From a virus: 64,000 bases of DNA. The DNA is taken from positions 24,152-88,151 of IMG/VR virus record IMGVR_UViG_3300035698_012970, one strand, 5' to 3'. Below, in pieces: positions 2 through 51,291 of the stretch. The position numbers and the translations under genes were made by a program. The notes under the pieces were generated by a model. It did not search any database. It was not told where the DNA came from and saw nothing but the letters and a program-made list of their open reading frames with translations. The stretch's first letter is position 1; each line of letters opens with the position of its first letter.

Positions 2-2722
2 CTATACTTTGGTATATTAGCACCTGGAGAAATAGTAGAACATACATTTGCTCAATCTATAGATATGACAGCAGCAGGTGATTATGAATTAACTTTCCAT
101 GCTAATATCTTAAACGATACATTACAAGTTCAGAATAATACTTTAAATGTAATTGTGACAAGTATTAATATGATAGAAAACTTTCCTTGGGTTGAGCCTT
201 TTGATAGTTTTCCTATTCCTGGGTGGTTTGCCAATACTATATCTGTATGGGTGCCAAATGTAGGACAATCGCCAAGTAATACTTGGTTATCATACGCAAA
301 CACAGCTGTATTTGCTAATATGTATTTTTGGCCTAATGGATGGGCAGATTATAGATCACCTCCAATATTATTAACAGAACATTCAACTTTATTATTTGAT
401 TGGTCAAGTGCATTTAGTCCATTAGGATTAGAAGATGCATTTGAGGTACAAATATCGACAGACTTAGGTGTTACTTGGACAACATTATGGTATCGTCAAG
501 GTATTGATTTACAATCAGAAGATGGCGGAACAAGTCAAGCTCCTGGAACTTATGCTACAGAAAGTTTTGACCTTACACCTTATACTGGTGAAATTGTTTA
601 CATTAATTTTAAAGCAATTACTGGTCATGGTGCTAATATATATGTAGATAATGTGTCGGTGTTACATAAAAACACACTTGATATAGAATTACTAGATATA
701 TACGCAAGTAATGAATGTGAATTAACAAATACTGAACATATTAATTTCTTAATTGATAATGATGGGTTACTACCTATCAATGAGTTTATGATCGTATACC
801 AAGTTAATGGTACATCATATCTTGAGAATGTAAACGCAACAATATTACCAACAGATTCACCATTTGTATACACATCAACTAATGTATTTGATATGTCAAT
901 TGCTGGTGATTATATAATAAGTGCTAACCTTATTTTGGTTGGTGATAATGAAGTAGATAATAAAGTTGAAACAATTCAAAGTATTTATACAATCGATACA
1001 TTCCCGTTTACTGAAGATTTTGAATTAGGGTATACAAACTACTTTTACTTTGGTGAGAATAAACATTCAGAGGTTGAAGTCTTTCAGATTGATACAACAT
1101 TAGCTCAAAGCTGGTATGAATTACAAGCGAACACATATTATAATGGTAACGTTGGTCACTTCGTTAAGATGTCAGCACAAGATGCTGGTGCATTTGGTTG
1201 GGCTGGTAATACATATGAACTAGCTTGGTCTTCAGAGAAACGTATCTCTGAAATATATAGTTGTCCTATTGATGCAACATCATTAACAACACTAGAATTA
1301 AAGGTAGACTTAAAACAATTCTTTAAATATCATACATACTATACTTGGTTTAGAGTATTAGTTAATGATAGTGTAATTGGTGACCTTGGTGGTAATACAA
1401 CGTACCAACCAGGAACTGAATACAGTGACGATCTTATACAGATCACATATAATCTAAACGAACATGCTGGAACAGTATTTAATCTTAAATTTCAAGCTGT
1501 AAATAAGTATGACGAGGACATATACCCAATGGGTAATATGACAACAATAGATAATATCACACTACAAGAGGTACCATTAGTAACTCAAGAACTTGATCTT
1601 AAAACGGGTTGGGGAATGATGTCAACCTACATTGAACCATTAGAACCTAGTTTTGATACCCTATTTGCAAATACAGCATCTGATATAATGTTAATCAAAG
1701 ATGATAATGGTATGGTTTATTGGCCATTATATAGTTTAAATATGATTGGTGATATTAGTATATTTGAAGGTTATCAAATAAAAACATATCATCAAATGAT
1801 GTATGATATGGTAGGTTATGCTGCTATCCCAGAAGAAAATGAATTTACAATTCCTTCAGGTTGGAGTATTATACCTTATATGAGAGATAATCCTGGTGCT
1901 GTTGATTTAGTATTAGCATCAATCACAAATGATATTATATTAGTTGGTGATGAGAATGGAATGGTTTATTGGCCATATTATGGTGTTAACCAAGTTGGTA
2001 ATATGCTTGATGGTGAAGGATATAAGATGAATACATTAAATTCAATTACGTTTACATTCCCATCAAATACAGACCCAGTGATTCTTGCTGGTTCAGGTAG
2101 TAATAAAACAGTAGTGAAGGATATGGTGAACTATGATAAAGTTGAACCGACTAGCAGTAATATGTATATCGCTATTGAATCTGATAAAATGCATTATGGT
2201 GATGAATTAGCGGTGTATTCAAACGATAAATTAATTGGTAGTACTGTTGTTCAGAAAAATGGTGTGGGTATTATAACAGTGTGGGGTAACGATGCTGATA
2301 TAAATGACCAGAAAGTAGCAAATGAAGGCGAAATTTACACGATAGAGCTATTCAGTTATGATGATGGTGCAACAAGTAAACTATCAAATTTGGTCTTTAA
2401 AATAGGTTCTGATGTATATGAAACAAATTCAATTGTAATCATTACAGATTTTTCAATTGAATTCGAAGCCAAACTATATCAAAGCTACCCAAACCCAACA
2501 AATGGTTTAACAACAGTTAAGTTTAGTATAACAAATAAAGACTTTGTTGTTATACAACTTTATGATAATTTAGGTAAAAATGTTTATACAATAGCACATG
2601 GCATGTATACTGAAGGTACACATACTATTGACATTAATATCTCATCACTTAAGCCTGGAAATTATCATTATATTATGACAACTCCTAGCGTTAAGTTACA
2701 GAAACAATTAACAATCATATGA
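2..2722 (+). CDS. Large secreted protein with T9SS (Por) C-terminal sorting domain; 5'-partial
   Basis: Frame is open from position 2 to the ORF-track ATG at 65. C-terminus LYQSYPNPTNG...LKPGNYHYIM...KQLTII fits the T9SS type-A CTD. MAM/cleaved-adhesin-like beta modules (IYVDNVSV, TTIDNITL). Confidence 0.8.
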   Translation, partial: LYFGILAPGEIVEHTFAQSIDMTAAGDYELTFHANILNDTLQVQNNTLNVIVTSINMIENFPWVEPFDSFPIPGWFANTISVWVPNVGQSPSNTWLSYANTAVFANMYFWPNGWADYRSPPILLTEHSTLLFDWSSAFSPLGLEDAFEVQISTDLGVTWTTLWYRQGIDLQSEDGGTSQAPGTYATESFDLTPYTGEIVYINFKAITGHGANIYVDNVSVLHKNTLDIELLDIYASNECELTNTEHINFLIDNDGLLPINEFMIVYQVNGTSYLENVNATILPTDSPFVYTSTNVFDMSIAGDYIISANLILVGDNEVDNKVETIQSIYTIDTFPFTEDFELGYTNYFYFGENKHSEVEVFQIDTTLAQSWYELQANTYYNGNVGHFVKMSAQDAGAFGWAGNTYELAWSSEKRISEIYSCPIDATSLTTLELKVDLKQFFKYHTYYTWFRVLVNDSVIGDLGGNTTYQPGTEYSDDLIQITYNLNEHAGTVFNLKFQAVNKYDEDIYPMGNMTTIDNITLQEVPLVTQELDLKTGWGMMSTYIEPLEPSFDTLFANTASDIMLIKDDNGMVYWPLYSLNMIGDISIFEGYQIKTYHQMMYDMVGYAAIPEENEFTIPSGWSIIPYMRDNPGAVDLVLASITNDIILVGDENGMVYWPYYGVNQVGNMLDGEGYKMNTLNSITFTFPSNTDPVILAGSGSNKTVVKDMVNYDKVEPTSSNMYIAIESDKMHYGDELAVYSNDKLIGSTVVQKNGVGIITVWGNDADINDQKVANEGEIYTIELFSYDDGATSKLSNLVFKIGSDVYETNSIVIITDFSIEFEAKLYQSYPNPTNGLTTVKFSITNKDFVVIQLYDNLGKNVYTIAHGMYTEGTHTIDINISSLKPGNYHYIMTTPSVKLQKQLTII

Positions 2723-12127: not shown

Positions 12128-12988
12128 TTATTCTGCGTTATTTGGTACAAGGTTTCTGATATATTCACGATCCTGTGTGAATGTTGGGGTATCTAGATCT
12201 GTTATCCATTTAGTTCTAGTGCTACCCTCTCCTCTAGTACCAATATTCCCGTCTGGCATTAGACTTGCACTGATTAGCTTATAGTCAATAACCTCAGTCA
12301 CTTTTCTAATAACAGCTCCTCTTTTCTTTCTAATTTCAGCCTTATCCCAATTAACACCCTTTTGAAACATCATTTCCTGCATCTCGTCTGTTTTCTTGCC
12401 ATTTAATTCTTTGTGTGAATATAAACATTGTGCACATGACGAGATTGAATTTCTAACCGCATCTTGTTGTCTCCAAACTAGATAATTTATAACCTCAGTT
12501 AATGTAGGGAGTTGGAAAACCCTTGCATCAAACATAGCTATCTTTTTACTCATATCTTCCATCTCGACCCATTCAAAATTTGGACGCATTGTCTTTTCAT
12601 CAATATGCGCAATCTCTTTTAGCCCTCTAATAAATCTTAGCTGATTAAATTTCGCTGTTGCTAAAGATGCAGCGACAGATGTTATCTTCTGTATAGTCCC
12701 ATCAAACCATGCTTCGGTATTAAGATTATCAAAATCAGTAAGAATTACTGAAATCTCGTCTGATTGGACATAAGCAAGTTTAGCTCCCATGATTTCTTTA
12801 CATAGATATTCAGCAGTTGAATTCATATCTTCTATGAATCCATGATCAAAAGGTCTTATTAAACCTCTTGTATATGTGTGGAATGCTTTACCGTCAATTC
12901 TAATGACAGTATAACTTCTTCTCATTAATTTTTGTTTAGTACGACTTTCGTAGTACGATTTCATTCTATCTCCTAAGTTGTCTTTCAT
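12128..12988 (-). CDS. thg1: tRNA(His) guanylyltransferase / Thg1-like protein
   Basis: RIDGKAFHTYT, YVQSDEIS, FDARVF and WRQQDAVRNSI motifs. Confidence 0.95.
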   Translation of the reverse strand: MKDNLGDRMKSYYESRTKQKLMRRSYTVIRIDGKAFHTYTRGLIRPFDHGFIEDMNSTAEYLCKEIMGAKLAYVQSDEISVILTDFDNLNTEAWFDGTIQKITSVAASLATAKFNQLRFIRGLKEIAHIDEKTMRPNFEWVEMEDMSKKIAMFDARVFQLPTLTEVINYLVWRQQDAVRNSISSCAQCLYSHKELNGKKTDEMQEMMFQKGVNWDKAEIRKKRGAVIRKVTEVIDYKLISASLMPDGNIGTRGEGSTRTKWITDLDTPTFTQDREYIRNLVPNNAE

Positions 12989-22861: not shown

Positions 22862-24369
22862 ACAACTTTTGCGATTTCTTTATATCTAAACTTATAATTT
22901 TTTATCATAAACTTAAGCATTTCCAAACTTGAAGCACAGATTATAAATCCATGATTTTTGAGGTTCATAGCAAAACCACTAGTATGTAGGTAATTTCTAT
23001 CTTTAAACTCCCCTATGATAGCGTTATATTCCCTCATATCACCGCATGGATAGTAATCTTTCGTCGTAGGAGTATGAGAAAGATTAGCATGTCCGTGGAT
23101 CATATAATTGATTTTTGGGAAATGCTCATATAACGCTACTTGAATTGGTGTGTCAACAGATGGTTTCTTATCTCCATAATAACCAATTTTATCACCATCT
23201 TTTGTTACACAAACAAAGTCATCTGCTCCCAAATATTCTTTTGGTGCATTTCTTTTTGAAACCCAAATACCCCCTTGTTTTCCTCTTGCAGTAGGAAACA
23301 TTTTTTTACATCGGGTTGATGCATTACCAAAATATCTTCCACCTCTTTCGTTCTCGACTTTTTTAGCAACATTCTTTACAATCTCTGAGAAACTGTTTAA
23401 TGTTTTAGGTGGTTCTATTGGAGCTACGCCACCAAGGTGACTTGATCCTTTACGTATAGATCCTTTAGTCCATCCATAGAATTTAAGGATACTTTTACCC
23501 AATTTATCTATGTCACTAGTAAGTCCCCAACTGTTACCTAAAGCATCAATTAAATTAAATTTATATGGTTTTTGTGTTTTGTCTATTGCAATGACTGCGT
23601 TAGCACCCATTTTGAAGATCCTTGAAACTGCATCACCTAAGGCAGACTCCATTGATTCCATTGAAACCAATCCCTTCTCAGTCACAAGATTTCTTAAAAC
23701 CTTAGTTACTATCATGACTGAGCCTTTAGGTTTCTTTGGATAGATCTTATTAATCGAATTATCAACGTTTGCTCCCCAGATAATTAAATCCTGATCTAAA
23801 TTAGTAGCCAATCTTAATATATCTAGACTTCCGCCATTTACAACATCAGAATTTAACTGTAAACCAAGTTCATTAATTATATTTGATGAATGTGATTTAC
23901 TTAGATCATTATCGAATGTTCCGCCAACAATAATTGGATTTTCTGGTAGTGCATTAAAAACTTCATTACTCAAAGCTTTTTTCAATTCTTTTACTTTAGG
24001 TTTGATTTTCCAAGTATCAATCACTTTTATATTATCTGTCCAAAATTGGATTGCTTGTACCTCTTCCTCTAATCCAAATGCATACATTTTATACCCAATT
24101 TCATGATTAGTTATTATTTTATGTGATACTCTCCAAGCTCTTGGTAACTCTACATAATTAATAGCTAATGCTTGATCCCAAACTTTATACCCAACAAAGA
24201 TAGCTAAGATTGGTCTGCTGATTTCAGAATCATCTTTAATATGTCTAAATAGAATATAGTCACCAAATTTCCATTCAGTATCTACTTCTAGAAAATACTC
24301 AACATTTTCTTTTAATTTTTCATATTTATTAAACCAATGTCGTGCTTGATATATGGCGTCGAATGTCAT
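22858..24369 (-). CDS. Protein with C-terminal class II aldolase/adducin domain
   Basis: GNASTR, KPSVDTPIQ..LY, IHGH and LKNHG motifs. Confidence 0.75.
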   Translation of the reverse strand: MTFDAIYQARHWFNKYEKLKENVEYFLEVDTEWKFGDYILFRHIKDDSEISRPILAIFVGYKVWDQALAINYVELPRAWRVSHKIITNHEIGYKMYAFGLEEEVQAIQFWTDNIKVIDTWKIKPKVKELKKALSNEVFNALPENPIIVGGTFDNDLSKSHSSNIINELGLQLNSDVVNGGSLDILRLATNLDQDLIIWGANVDNSINKIYPKKPKGSVMIVTKVLRNLVTEKGLVSMESMESALGDAVSRIFKMGANAVIAIDKTQKPYKFNLIDALGNSWGLTSDIDKLGKSILKFYGWTKGSIRKGSSHLGGVAPIEPPKTLNSFSEIVKNVAKKVENERGGRYFGNASTRCKKMFPTARGKQGGIWVSKRNAPKEYLGADDFVCVTKDGDKIGYYGDKKPSVDTPIQVALYEHFPKINYMIHGHANLSHTPTTKDYYPCGDMREYNAIIGEFKDRNYLHTSGFAMNLKNHGFIICASSLEMLKFMIKNYKFRYKEIAKVV

Positions 24370-25670: not shown

Positions 25671-26429
25671 TTATCTTTTTTCGAATGTTGGTTTTAACCA
25701 CATTCCATTTCCAAATACTAACTTAAGAAATCCAGGAATCATTGAATCAACAGTGCTAAGAAGCTCGATGGTTCCGATGGTATCATGCTTCATCATTTTA
25801 ATAACTTCTTCTCTGATTCTTTCACCACTTACTGTGTTCCCAAGCTTCTCTAAAATCTCTTCCTGTCTCATAGCGGCCCAAATGTCATCATGAATCATGA
25901 AACCTTTGGTGATTGAGAATCTAAGAGCTCTCAAAATTCTTAAAGGATCATCCATCATTGTTTGTTTTGCAGGTAGTGGTGTTCTTAAAACTCCTCTGCC
26001 ATTCTTAAGATCTCCAATCCCGTTGAATAAATCAATGATAGTTCCATCTTCTGCTTTTGCTAAAGCGTTTAGTGTGAAGTCCCTTCTAATAAGATCATCT
26101 TCTAATGTACCTAATACTAAGATAGGATGTCTTGTATTCTCGATATAGCCAACTTCTTTTCTGGCCATTACAAAGTCTGCAACCAAACCTTCATTCTTAT
26201 CTCCTTTTGGAAATTTTGCTCTGATCGTAAACATTTTAGGGGTTGATAAGAAGATTTCAAATCCTCTTTCTGTCATCCAGGTTTCCATGAAAGCAAATCC
26301 TTCTTCAACTGTTTTGTTTAAATCGTCCATCACAAAAGTGAAATCGATATCTTTGGAACTAATTCCTAAGATTCCATCTCTAATACATCCGCCAACGCGA
26401 TATAGTTTTGGCTCTTTGCTATCTGTCAT
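25671..26429 (-). CDS. cca: tRNA nucleotidyltransferase (CCA-adding)/poly(A) polymerase family
   Basis: VGGCIRD..LG...KDIDF, DLIRRDFTLNA, DDPLRILRALRF, SGERIREE. Confidence 0.9.
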   Translation of the reverse strand: MTDSKEPKLYRVGGCIRDGILGISSKDIDFTFVMDDLNKTVEEGFAFMETWMTERGFEIFLSTPKMFTIRAKFPKGDKNEGLVADFVMARKEVGYIENTRHPILVLGTLEDDLIRRDFTLNALAKAEDGTIIDLFNGIGDLKNGRGVLRTPLPAKQTMMDDPLRILRALRFSITKGFMIHDDIWAAMRQEEILEKLGNTVSGERIREEVIKMMKHDTIGTIELLSTVDSMIPGFLKLVFGNGMWLKPTFEKR

Positions 26430-45485: not shown

Positions 45486-45614
45486 TAAGATCCTACTCGG
45501 CGATAACGTCGCATCGGCATGGTATTTTTGCATTTTAAAATTCCGCCTCACCCCACGGCGCGAGTACTTGTCCGAAATTATACCAGCGTCCTGGTTTAAC
45601 TACATAGGATCTTA
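45486..45614 (-). ncRNA. Unidentified structured RNA
   Basis: GC-rich island closed by a TAAGATCCTA/TAGGATCTTA terminal stem. Confidence 0.5.
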
Positions 45615-45617
45615 TAG

Positions 45618-45728
45618 CGACCAGAGAGTGATTCGAACACCCCACGCAGCAGGGGCTTCCTGCCTCATTGTCCACGGTATCAATCAAGTGTGCACTACTT
45701 AAAAGGTCCCTTGTTCCATGTCAAGGCC
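45618..45728 (-). ncRNA. tRNA-like RNA (T-arm present, no canonical cloverleaf)
   Basis: GGGTG-TTCGAAT-CACTC T-arm; partial acceptor stem. Confidence 0.45.
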
Positions 45729-45740
45729 ATTTTTTAAAAA

Positions 45741-45985
45741 GAAGAATAATAGCCAGAATCCTGTATTTAACTAATCATTTGTCTTATTGCCTCACACCAC
45801 ACTATCTTTGAGCTGTTCATCCTCTAAGTGAATTTGAGTTGCATCCTCGACAGTACAAAGGTGAGTGCCATGGTGGATCTAATCCTTTAATAAATGGCAT
45901 TGGCCGTTTAACCATTTCCTACCTTCTCCTGTCTTAAACAGTAATGTTCTGAGCTTCCTCTCCGTAGAGCGATTAGCTGTTCTTC
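45741..45985 (-). ncRNA. rnpB: Minimal RNase P RNA-like ribozyme
   Basis: P1 GAAGAA/TTCTTC; P2 CTAATCG/TGATTAG; CR-I GAGGAAGCTCAGAA pairs with CR-V TTCTGGCT leaving a bulged U (P4); CR-IV AGACAAATGATT; ACAGGA. Confidence 0.8.
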
Positions 45986-46458
45986 TTTTGTGCTTTCTTA
46001 TAAGCATTATTAGCTCTTTGTCTCCTGACCCCATTGTCTATTAGGACAAGACGATCTAGAAATGTGAATCTATATACATCAAAGTATACGTCATCCTTTT
46101 TGTAGTTTGAATATCCATTATCATACGTGGCCTGAGCTAATACTTGGCCAAGTCCATTTCTGGTATTCCTACAATCATTAGCTTTATATACAGAATCTAG
46201 TTTTTGTTTCCCAGAATCTAACCAATGTGCTTTACCGTACTTCTTAGTTAAAGTGTATCTTTTAGCAGCAAATCTATCTCTAGATAATGAACCAAATGAA
46301 TCTGTGCTATATCCAACTGTAAAACCTTTAACGTGTTGTAATCTTAAACTTCTGGTTCTGGCGAAGAAATCATAAAATGCACCTCCATACCAATCCCAGC
46401 GAAACTTATGCTTCAATCTATGAAACGAAAAGCCCCTTTTTCTTTTCTTTGTTCTCAT
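45973..46458 (-). CDS. Basic hypothetical protein
   Basis: 161-aa ORF whose stop overlaps the 5' end of the RNase P-like RNA. Confidence 0.6.
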   Translation of the reverse strand: MRTKKRKRGFSFHRLKHKFRWDWYGGAFYDFFARTRSLRLQHVKGFTVGYSTDSFGSLSRDRFAAKRYTLTKKYGKAHWLDSGKQKLDSVYKANDCRNTRNGLGQVLAQATYDNGYSNYKKDDVYFDVYRFTFLDRLVLIDNGVRRQRANNAYKKAQKKNS

Positions 46459-46700: not shown

Positions 46701-46825
46701 CGGAAGTAGATGGACTCGAACCAACAAGCAACTAAGTGTTCCCTTACTCCTAGAATAATCGATTGGTTGCACAACTGAAAATCCCGTGCTCTGATTAGAT
46801 CTCGCACTTTAGGGCTAATACTTCC
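46701..46825 (-). ncRNA. 125-nt tRNA-like RNA with expanded interior
   Basis: Perfect acceptor GGAAGTA/TACTTCC and T-loop TGG-TTCGAGT-CCA. Confidence 0.6.
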
Positions 46826-49457: not shown

Positions 49458-49533
49458 TTGGAAGAGGGGGACTTGAACCCCCGAAACCTCTACATTATCA
49501 GTGTAGCGCTCTAACCAACTGAGCTACCTTCCA
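49458..49533 (-). tRNA. tRNA-Ile(GAT)
   Basis: CTACA-CTGATAA-TGTAG. Confidence 0.92.
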
Positions 49534-50179
49534 AAGTGTTTATTATATTAGTAATTGATTCTATGATATTATCATCTGGCCATTTTATTCGATAAACTTT
49601 CCATCCTTGTGATTTCAATTTGGAATCTTTTTCTATATCAACTTTTTTTCTTTCTGGTTTATTGTGTTGTTGTCCATCAATTTCAATGACAATCTTATCT
49701 TCATGTAGTGCAAAATCAGCAAAATATTTACCAAATTTCCATTCATATTCATATTCTATACCCAAGCTATCTAACGTTCTAATTGCTATAGATTCTGGAT
49801 AAGACGGCTCTAGTTTTTTTCGAGTTTTCCAACCAAAAGAGACGTCACCATCAGCATGTCTTTTCTTAGCCATTATTGAATTCTTTTCTGCAATTTTTTC
49901 TTTGTAACCTGGTGTTTTCCATTTCAATTCAGCCGAACATGATCTAGAGCAAGTTTTCTGATTTTTTTTTCTCCATTTTACTTCAAACTCTTCCTTACAG
50001 TTCTGACAAATTAACTTTATTTTACCAGGTCCTTTATTAAACAACGTATCGGATACTTTCTTATTGAGATCTTCTCGATTTACTTTAGTAGCAAACCCTC
50101 TAGCGCATTTTATAGAACAAAATCTTCCGGAACCATAAGATCCATCATGTTTAACCCCGCAATTTTCACAAATCATCAT
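49511..50179 (-). CDS. DUF559/Vsr-like homing endonuclease with MICENC N-terminal module
   Basis: YFADF...IVIEIDGQQH...D..L...GWKVYRI; the stop codon lies inside tRNA-Ile. Confidence 0.85.
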   Translation of the reverse strand: MMICENCGVKHDGSYGSGRFCSIKCARGFATKVNREDLNKKVSDTLFNKGPGKIKLICQNCKEEFEVKWRKKNQKTCSRSCSAELKWKTPGYKEKIAEKNSIMAKKRHADGDVSFGWKTRKKLEPSYPESIAIRTLDSLGIEYEYEWKFGKYFADFALHEDKIVIEIDGQQHNKPERKKVDIEKDSKLKSQGWKVYRIKWPDDNIIESITNIINTLEGSSVG

Positions 50180-50541: not shown

Positions 50542-50614
50542 CGCTCATAGAGGGATTCGAACCCCCAACCCTTACGTTAACAGCGTAGCGCTCTACCATT
50601 GGAGCTATATGAGC
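50542..50614 (-). tRNA. tRNA-Asn(GTT)
   Basis: TACG-CTGTTAA-CGTA. Confidence 0.9.
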
Positions 50615-51291
50615 TAGTGTATAAACTTATATGCTTCTTGTATCCAATATTTCGGATTATTAAACATATCTTTCCATTTTATTCTCAAAATTTGCCAACC
50701 TTCTTCTATTAAAGATTGGTCTTTTCTTTTGTCTCGTTCAATATACTCTTCGAATCTTTGATGCTGTTCCCCATCAATCTCTATAGCTTTCTTTTTGTTA
50801 ACCCAAGCAAAATCTATAGCATATATTGAAACTGGATATTCAGTTTCGTACTCTTTATCCAGGAAATTATTTTCTATTACTCTTTCAAAAAATTCTTCTG
50901 GGTATGATTTTTCGTTATTCCACCTACTTTTACCTATATTCCAAGCCCTTCCATCTTTATGAGCTTTTTCCATTGATTCGCTAATCAAACTTTTACTAAA
51001 TTCACTATGTTTTCTCCCAATTCCAGATTTAGCAATTTTTGCTAGCCTTTCTTCTCTCTTTGGGTTCATCTTACATAACGTCTTATGTCCTCCTAGTTTC
51101 CACCCATTACTAAATTCATTTCCACAGTATTCACAAATCCAAGGACCTTCAGACTTTTTCCTAATCCTCTTTGATTTACCTTTACTTCTACCTTTCTTAT
51201 AACTTTCTCCTCTGTTGTGTGATGATACATGACCACCTAAAGATTCTTTCTTATCAAACTTTTTACCACAAATTTTACATTGATGTTTCAT
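50614..51291 (-). CDS. C2H2 zinc-finger plus DUF559-like homing endonuclease
   Basis: CKICGKKF...LGGH; YAIDFA...AIEIDGEQH...GWQILRI. Confidence 0.85.
   Translation of the reverse strand: MKHQCKICGKKFDKKESLGGHVSSHNRGESYKKGRSKGKSKRIRKKSEGPWICEYCGNEFSNGWKLGGHKTLCKMNPKREERLAKIAKSGIGRKHSEFSKSLISESMEKAHKDGRAWNIGKSRWNNEKSYPEEFFERVIENNFLDKEYETEYPVSIYAIDFAWVNKKKAIEIDGEQHQRFEEYIERDKRKDQSLIEEGWQILRIKWKDMFNNPKYWIQEAYKFIH

Follow-up and report, generated by a model that had tools for sequence, protein, structure and literature searches.

A probable phage-borne miniature RNase P RNA with a re-spelled but fully paired P4 helix

The minus strand of a 64,000-nt stretch of viral DNA (the window) is likely to carry, at positions 45737-45988, a genuine and probably functional phage-borne miniature RNase P RNA derived from the bacterial type A, as judged from its sequence. 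RNase P RNA, the ribozyme that trims new tRNAs, is generally considered to be universal among cells. The window comes from an IMG/VR virus record of 88 kb (IMGVR_UViG_3300035698_012970, positions 24,152 to 88,151), which is ~38% complete by the CheckV estimate, and a search of the whole record found a single copy of the RNA. Identical sequence, with no variants at the site, was recovered in four salt-lake runs from 2017-2019; the sequencing runs that hold the stretch are salt-lake DNA contigs only, with no RNA run listed.

Results

An independent covariance model detects the RNA

The homology of the candidate was assessed with a covariance model, R1, built from only two phage miniature RNase P RNAs (L119 and L134), with the candidate itself excluded. 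Both parent sequences, which are the closest relatives of the candidate, match the bacterial type A family RF00010 over its full length at E-values of about 1e-17 (2e-17 for L119). In R1 the P4 helix was entered as base pairs, P2 was left unpaired and P6 was not included. With the filters off, the model matched positions 45751-45959 of the minus strand with 52.3 bits (E 4.7e-13), and with default filters it gave a full-length match at 45737-45988 on the same strand (66.1 bits, E 6e-16); these E-values are rough because the calibration was shortened, and the robust figure is the gap of 40-plus bits to the next best site, which reached 10.5 bits in the 128 kb searched with the filters off. The score of the candidate, which at the family level rests on this two-sequence model, exceeds that of many miniature RNAs with a canonical P4. 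Furthermore, a motif pattern independent of P4 matched once in the window and not at all in 100 shuffles of it.

The catalytic core is complete and the specificity domain is replaced by a stub

The gene (45737..45988) is about 245-252 nt long, and the RNA from P1 to P1' covers positions 45985-45741 of the minus strand, to which all coordinates in this section refer. The initial annotation had described an RNA of about 245 nt with P1, P2, a short P3 and a P4 with its bulged U, and this description proved correct on that strand, where all 13 proposed helices pair perfectly. P1 is formed by GAAGAA (45985-45980) and UUCUUC (45746-45741), and P2, which is pseudoknotted with P4, by CUAAUC (45976-45971) and GAUUAG (45776-45771), with 6/6 pairs in each. 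The short P3 (45969-45960) reads CUC-UACG-GAG, that is, 3 bp and a UNCG-type tetraloop. The following tract (45947..45959) comprises J3/4, AGGA(A), and the 5' strand of P4, AGC-U-CAGAA (45955-45947), in which the U at 45952 is bulged; the 3' strand of P4, UUCUG-GCU, lies at 45751-45758 and completes all eight pairs.

This P4, made of 3 bp, the bulged U and 5 bp, has the same geometry as in the family alignments, and its strands are in register with the P4 strands of the RF00010 consensus. The consensus reads GAGGAAAG at J3/4 and GAGGAAAGUCC across J3/4 and P4; the candidate has AGGA(A) at the former. J2/4 of the candidate, UUAAAUACAGGA (45759-45770), contains ACAGGA where the consensus has ACAGAA. 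When the candidate was compared with the consensus J3/4-P4 tract and with the consensus J2/4-P4 tract (ACAGAA...GGCUUA), the AGGAA, the bulged U, the C that follows it and the trailing A were found to be retained, and four of the eight P4 pairs were re-spelled with compensation.

P5 joins CAUU (45943..45946) to GAUG (45842-45845) by 4/4 pairs, and its cells are 100% paired across the family. The J5/7 segment, ACUGUUUAAG, provides CUGUU (45937..45941) for the P6 pseudoknot with AACAG (45813-45817) of the P17 loop. The specificity domain (P8-P14, with CR-II/CR-III) is absent, and a stub of ~85 nt (45849..45933) is found instead, consisting of a P7-like helix (GACAG/CUGUC) around three short helices; the conserved GAG comes next and is followed by GAUGCAA. 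The stub gave no match to the S-domain models in Rfam and aligns as an insertion, and the spacing between the P5 strands is 97 nt in the candidate and 41-122 nt in its relatives.

The P15-P17 region (45791..45838) contains P15 (CUC/GAG), J15/16 (AAAUU), P16 (CACU/AGUG) and P17 (GAG/CUC). The 3' side of L15, UGGUGU (45794-45799), carries the GGU that in type A enzymes pairs with the CCA of the tRNA, and the AAAUU lies on the opposite side of the internal loop. P18 is absent, as it is in L119, L134 and L145. The J15/2 tract, GCAAUAAGACAAAU (45777..45790), is equivalent to J18/2, for which the RF00010 consensus has AGAUgAAUG, and after it come P2', J2/4, P4' and P1', in that order.

Rfam misses the candidate and its relatives

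No RNase P family was reported by Rfam 15 at the gathering threshold in the whole window, nor was any RNase P match obtained at E<=10 in the 1.2 kb, 1.0 kb and 276 nt around the site. The candidate did not reach the gathering threshold of RF00010 (100 bits), and the archaeal type T model RF02357 gave no match to the candidate region at E<=10. The initial annotation had held that the lack of a covariance-model hit would speak against an RNase P RNA, and the Infernal search with the Rfam models formally gave exactly that result. This silence is a false negative. Because P4 is a pseudoknot, both of its strands stand in the RF00010 alignment as unpaired conserved letters, and since they are scored as such, an RNA with a re-spelled P4 loses score on both strands. 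When nine relatives were scanned with Rfam, none reached a gathering score and six had no RNase P match at all; the three others matched RF00010 with 46.8 bits or the archaeal RF00373 with 38.6 and 35.6 bits, the sub-threshold archaeal matches being those of L197 and L185. Rfam-based annotation therefore systematically misses these phage RNAs, and the same blind spot conceals the candidate. The folding energy of the 245-nt single strand (MFE z-score of -1.0) is likewise uninformative, because the fold cannot represent the three pseudoknotted helices.

The candidate belongs to a covarying family of phage RNAs

Related RNAs were found with two patterns. In the first one, which required a canonical P4, the 5' and 3' strands of P4 had to be 125-180 nt apart, a spacing that a full-size bacterial RNA cannot match. 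Matches were obtained at 11 loci in viral contigs and at 55 in metagenomes. Four of these viral loci, located among tRNA genes on contigs of 39-190 kb, were scanned with Rfam and matched RF00010 end to end (63-118 bits, E 1e-17 to 1e-36), and in the RF00010 alignment of the viral miniature RNAs the catalytic domain is kept and the specificity domain is deleted. Since such short viral loci match the model from end to end, phages do carry miniature RNase P RNAs. The second pattern was agnostic to P4 and used single-stranded motifs only, with no letters of P4, P2, P6 or P1. It matched 18 viral contigs of 13-405 kb, which yielded 17 new relatives, and R1 scored all but one of these at 84-171 bits.

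Covariation was counted in an alignment (A5) of 19 distinct sequences. In total, 95.4% of the cells pair and 34 of the 49 pairs change on both sides; when the partners were slid, only 35-40% paired, and none of 500 shuffles reached the observed values. P4 is paired in 98.7% of its cells and seven of its eight pairs covary. P2 reaches 98.2%, with 5/6 pairs covarying, and P6 reaches 98.7% with the compensatory spellings CGCU/AGCG, UGCU/AGCA, AGCU/AGCU and UGUU/AACA, the last one being that of the candidate and of L187. The alignment was not fitted to P2 and P6, because neither of them is in R1.

At the two P4 pairs that precede the bulge, the spellings AG, GG, AC, AU, GC, CU, GU and CC occur, always with matching partners, and L192 and L197 share the P4 spelling of the candidate, AGGAAGCUCA. 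The earlier statement that P4 diverges yet keeps its pairing was thus confirmed, both here (8/8 pairs) and among the 19 relatives, and by the alignment a divergent P4 is a normal trait of the phage subgroup. The subgroup has further signatures, namely a J5/7 of the form AYUGYUUAAG that pairs as P6 with the P17 loop, P7 and then GAG, GAUGCAAC.CAAA, the absence of P18 and a P4 that is variable and compensated; all of them were found in the candidate. Taken with the homology and the anatomy, this covariation bears out the proposal of a phage-encoded minimal RNase P RNA.

The candidate also shows oddities of its own. At position five of the J2/4 motif ACAGAA it has a G that is found in no other member, the 19 relatives (19/19) having an A; the pattern permitted either letter. 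Its J15/16 strand and its P17 loop depart from those of the relatives, and none of the 20 subgroup members scores lower with R1 (66 bits, vs 84-234 for the others).

Other probes did not extend the family. A pattern with the specific P4 of the candidate gave 0 matches in viral contigs, and blastn with either the 2.1 kb around the site or the L119 RNA as the query found nothing among 50,697 records of cultured phages. The neighbouring proteins, used as probes for related phages, found no loci, and nine window proteins had no tblastn match in the flanks of the relatives. Two tools were discarded: the exact 14-mer of J3/4 and the P4 5' strand, which had at least 115 chance matches in viral contigs, and a MAFFT alignment of four heterogeneous miniature RNAs (A1), whose middle was too poor for a model.

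Additionally, other contigs from the same lakes (runs X1-X4) were 85-87% identical to the core at window positions 45817-45859 and 45933-45971, so that related phage RNase P RNAs co-occur in this habitat. One of these contigs was ~5-fold deeper, and its flank resembles the L119-type stub. In the metagenome set, the contigs L159, L163 and L178 show three tandem copies, with a period of ~460-470 nt, of a short, GC-rich RNase P-like RNA with a canonical P4; the arrangement resembles a eukaryotic nuclear-type gene array.

The RNA lies in a tRNA-rich region

ARAGORN called 18 tRNA genes in the window, where a group I intron is also present, all on the minus strand; the total is at least 18 genes plus one intron-bearing tRNA (roughly 19). 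None of the tRNA genes (35093-61635) encodes CCA, and 18/18 have a C after the discriminator base. This is not due to chance, because the C content is ~17-20%, and the C may be a determinant of processing or of CCA repair. A CCA-adding tRNA nucleotidyltransferase is encoded at 25671-26429 (minus strand; phrog_24229, E 7.5e-60) and a tRNA-His guanylyltransferase-like (Thg1-like) protein at 12128-12988 (minus strand; phrog_4717, E 3.8e-85). The RNase P RNA and these two genes fit a tRNA-maturation toolkit.

The RNase P RNA gene itself is outside the tRNA arrays, within a mostly non-coding island of 1.8 kb that also carries tRNA-like sequences accepted by neither ARAGORN nor Rfam. Whereas the relatives are located directly among tRNAs, here the record has at least 18 tRNA genes and the nearest called one is 2.9 kb off. 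A tRNA-like RNA of ~125 nt at window positions 46701-46825 (minus strand), in which an acceptor stem of 7 bp (GGAAGUA/UACUUCC) and a T-loop-like motif, GGUUCGAGUCC, are recognised, was called by neither ARAGORN nor Rfam; it may represent a tRNA that is interrupted or degenerate, or else a signal for processing. Directly 3' of the RNase P RNA (45600-45736, minus strand), a small hairpin followed by a U-run resembles a terminator, and the same segment contains a T-arm-like GGGUG-UUCGAAU-CACUC with no recognisable acceptor stem. An FkbM-type methyltransferase gene is found just downstream of the island.

Between the tRNA genes there are two ORFs of the DUF559/MTES_1575 type (Vsr-like endonuclease), at 49511-50179 and 50614-51291 (both minus strand), of which one has a C2H2 zinc finger; both probably encode homing endonucleases. 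At the start of the window (65-2722, plus strand), a protein of 885 aa carries at its end a type IX secretion C-terminal sorting domain (PF18962), which suggests a Bacteroidota host.

The adjacent basic ORF is an orphan

An ORF of 161 aa (ORF161; 45973..46458, minus strand; pI 10.4) adjoins the RNA and has the same orientation, its last 13 nt and stop codon overlapping P1/P2 at the 5' end of the RNA. Its in-frame coding potential is positive, though below that of most genes here. The protein has 23% Lys+Arg, no Glu and a single Ile, compared with averages of 7.5% Glu and 8.3% Ile in the proteins of this genome, and its composition looks foreign. No family match was found in Pfam and PHROGs, a word search of 5.8 billion clustered proteins returned only the protein itself, and a full HMMER search of 1.84 billion representative proteins gave no homologue. 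The structure predictions were unusable (pLDDT of 0.36 in the ESM Atlas, and of 49 with AlphaFold2, too poor for a fold search).

The initial annotation had put this ORF forward as a speculative protein partner of the RNA. No ORF161-like protein was found beside 83 other RNase P loci, and since a dedicated cofactor is expected to travel with its RNA, the partner role did not find support in these searches. A phage-made holoenzyme, in which the miniature RNA would act on CCA-less pre-tRNAs with ORF161 replacing the host RnpA, is considered very improbable because no relative has such a gene; if it were true, ORF161 would represent a novel type of protein subunit for RNase P. RnpA (PF00825) was not found in this record, at its ~38% completeness, nor in the genomes of five large relatives, two of which are complete with terminal repeats. 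The simplest assumption is therefore that the RNA uses the RnpA of the host.

Discussion

The candidate shares with type A RNAs (RF00010; E. coli M1 RNA/rnpB) the pseudoknotted P1-P2-P3-P4 core with its bulged U, J3/4 AGGAA, J2/4 ACAG.A, P5, P6, P15 with the L15 GGU, P16/17 and a J18/2 tract of the form AGA.AAAUG. Unlike them, it is phage-encoded, lacks P18 and has no RF00010 match, and its length of ~250 nt, against ~370 nt, agrees with the earlier remark that it is much shorter than bacterial type A RNAs. The specificity domain of type A comprises 180-200 nt and reads the tRNA elbow; in the candidate the 85-nt stub replaces P8-P14, and in addition four of the eight P4 pairs are re-spelled and one A of J2/4 is a G. 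The architecture is the same as that of the canonical-P4 phage RNAs (L117, L118 and L120, and the L119/L134/L145 subgroup), which measure 193-296 nt and were recovered on large viral contigs with many tRNA genes; the variable P4, the long stub insertion, the G in J2/4 and the location outside a tRNA array, next to the orphan ORF, set the candidate apart from them.

The nearly complete loss of the specificity domain is also known, as an independent natural case, from type T of the Thermoproteaceae (RF02357), an RNA that remains a pre-tRNA 5' endonuclease in spite of it. This likeness is an analogy and not a membership, type T being archaeal, with several proteins and another spelling of the core. 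The closest case in the literature searched is that of Mycobacterium austroafricanum and M. sp. YC-RL4, for which additional RNase P RNA homologues have been described (PMC9569102); their specificity domain is altered, they adjoin an endonuclease gene and they are suggested to have been acquired. They lie on the chromosome, standard tools annotate them and their origin is uncertain, and they are likened to the candidate by description only. What is new here is a phage-borne RNase P RNA with no specificity domain and with a freely varying P4. A viral RNase P RNA was not found in the jumbo-phage reviews examined, which make no mention of RNase P, in a review of the history of RNase P or in the open-access literature searched.

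Several other readings of the locus were weighed. That the resemblance to RNase P RNA is due to chance, the region being merely the 3' UTR or terminator of ORF 45973-46458, would agree with the silence of Rfam, the MFE z-score of -1.0 and the overlap of the RNA with the stop codon of the ORF; this reading is refuted by the R1 scores and the family covariation, and we regard its probability as close to nil. The gap over the best background match was 42-56 bits with an independent model, no match to the multi-motif pattern is expected in shuffled sequence, and the site falls into a strongly covarying family. Another reading is a true homologue that has become a decaying or inactive relic, left behind among the degenerate tRNA-like elements of a non-coding island. 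The unique G of J2/4, the deviant letters of J15/16 and the P17 loop, the lowest R1 score of the 20 members, the position outside the tRNA arrays and beside tRNA-like sequences that were not accepted, and the end of an ORF overlapping the gene would all suit such a relic. However, every helix is perfectly paired, including the P4 and P6 pseudoknots, a C-to-U change in P6 is matched by a G-to-A change, the L15 GGU, the bulged U and J3/4 AGGAA are intact, and the identical sequence recurred over the four salt-lake runs. Decay is thus rated as unlikely, and it is the foremost of these alternatives.

An RNA derived from RNase P with a changed job is a less probable reading still. It might, for example, cleave another substrate, or it might sequester the host RnpA, in which case host tRNA maturation would be shut down because RnpA is captured. 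Recognition of the tRNA elbow is removed with the specificity domain, several P4 positions with conserved (upper-case) letters in the RF00010 consensus are freed in the subgroup, and, no phage rnpA having been found, the RNA must compete for the host RnpA. On the other hand, the parts best conserved across the family are precisely the CCA-binding GGU, J18/2, J2/4 and the bulged U, the family members lie inside tRNA arrays, and RNase P RNAs reduced to the catalytic domain, as well as those of type T, cleave pre-tRNA. These observations speak against a changed job.

As to how a functional RNA of this kind would work, we infer its expression, its protein partner and its catalysis from this genomic setting. 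The RNA would be transcribed during infection and would assemble with the host RnpA protein, and the resulting enzyme would remove the 5' leaders from pre-tRNAs that the phage itself encodes, alongside the CCA-adding enzyme and the Thg1-like enzyme of the phage. The most likely substrates, on the gene content, would be the ~19 CCA-less phage pre-tRNAs, and processing of the nearby tRNAs by the RNA may reasonably be supposed. Classic work on T4, as cited in PMC11143913, showed that the cleavage of phage precursors by RNase P can be preceded and promoted by CCA addition.

These results indicated that large phages, represented by the candidate and 19 relatives, carry a natural RNase P RNA that consists of the catalytic domain only. 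At P4, letters that the RF00010 consensus gives in upper case, as conserved, vary freely in these phages, provided that the pairing and the bulged U are kept. The RNA also offers a small natural ribozyme for the study of minimal substrate recognition. Finally, as a hypothesis, phages may assume the 5' maturation of tRNAs along with the addition of CCA and of G-1.
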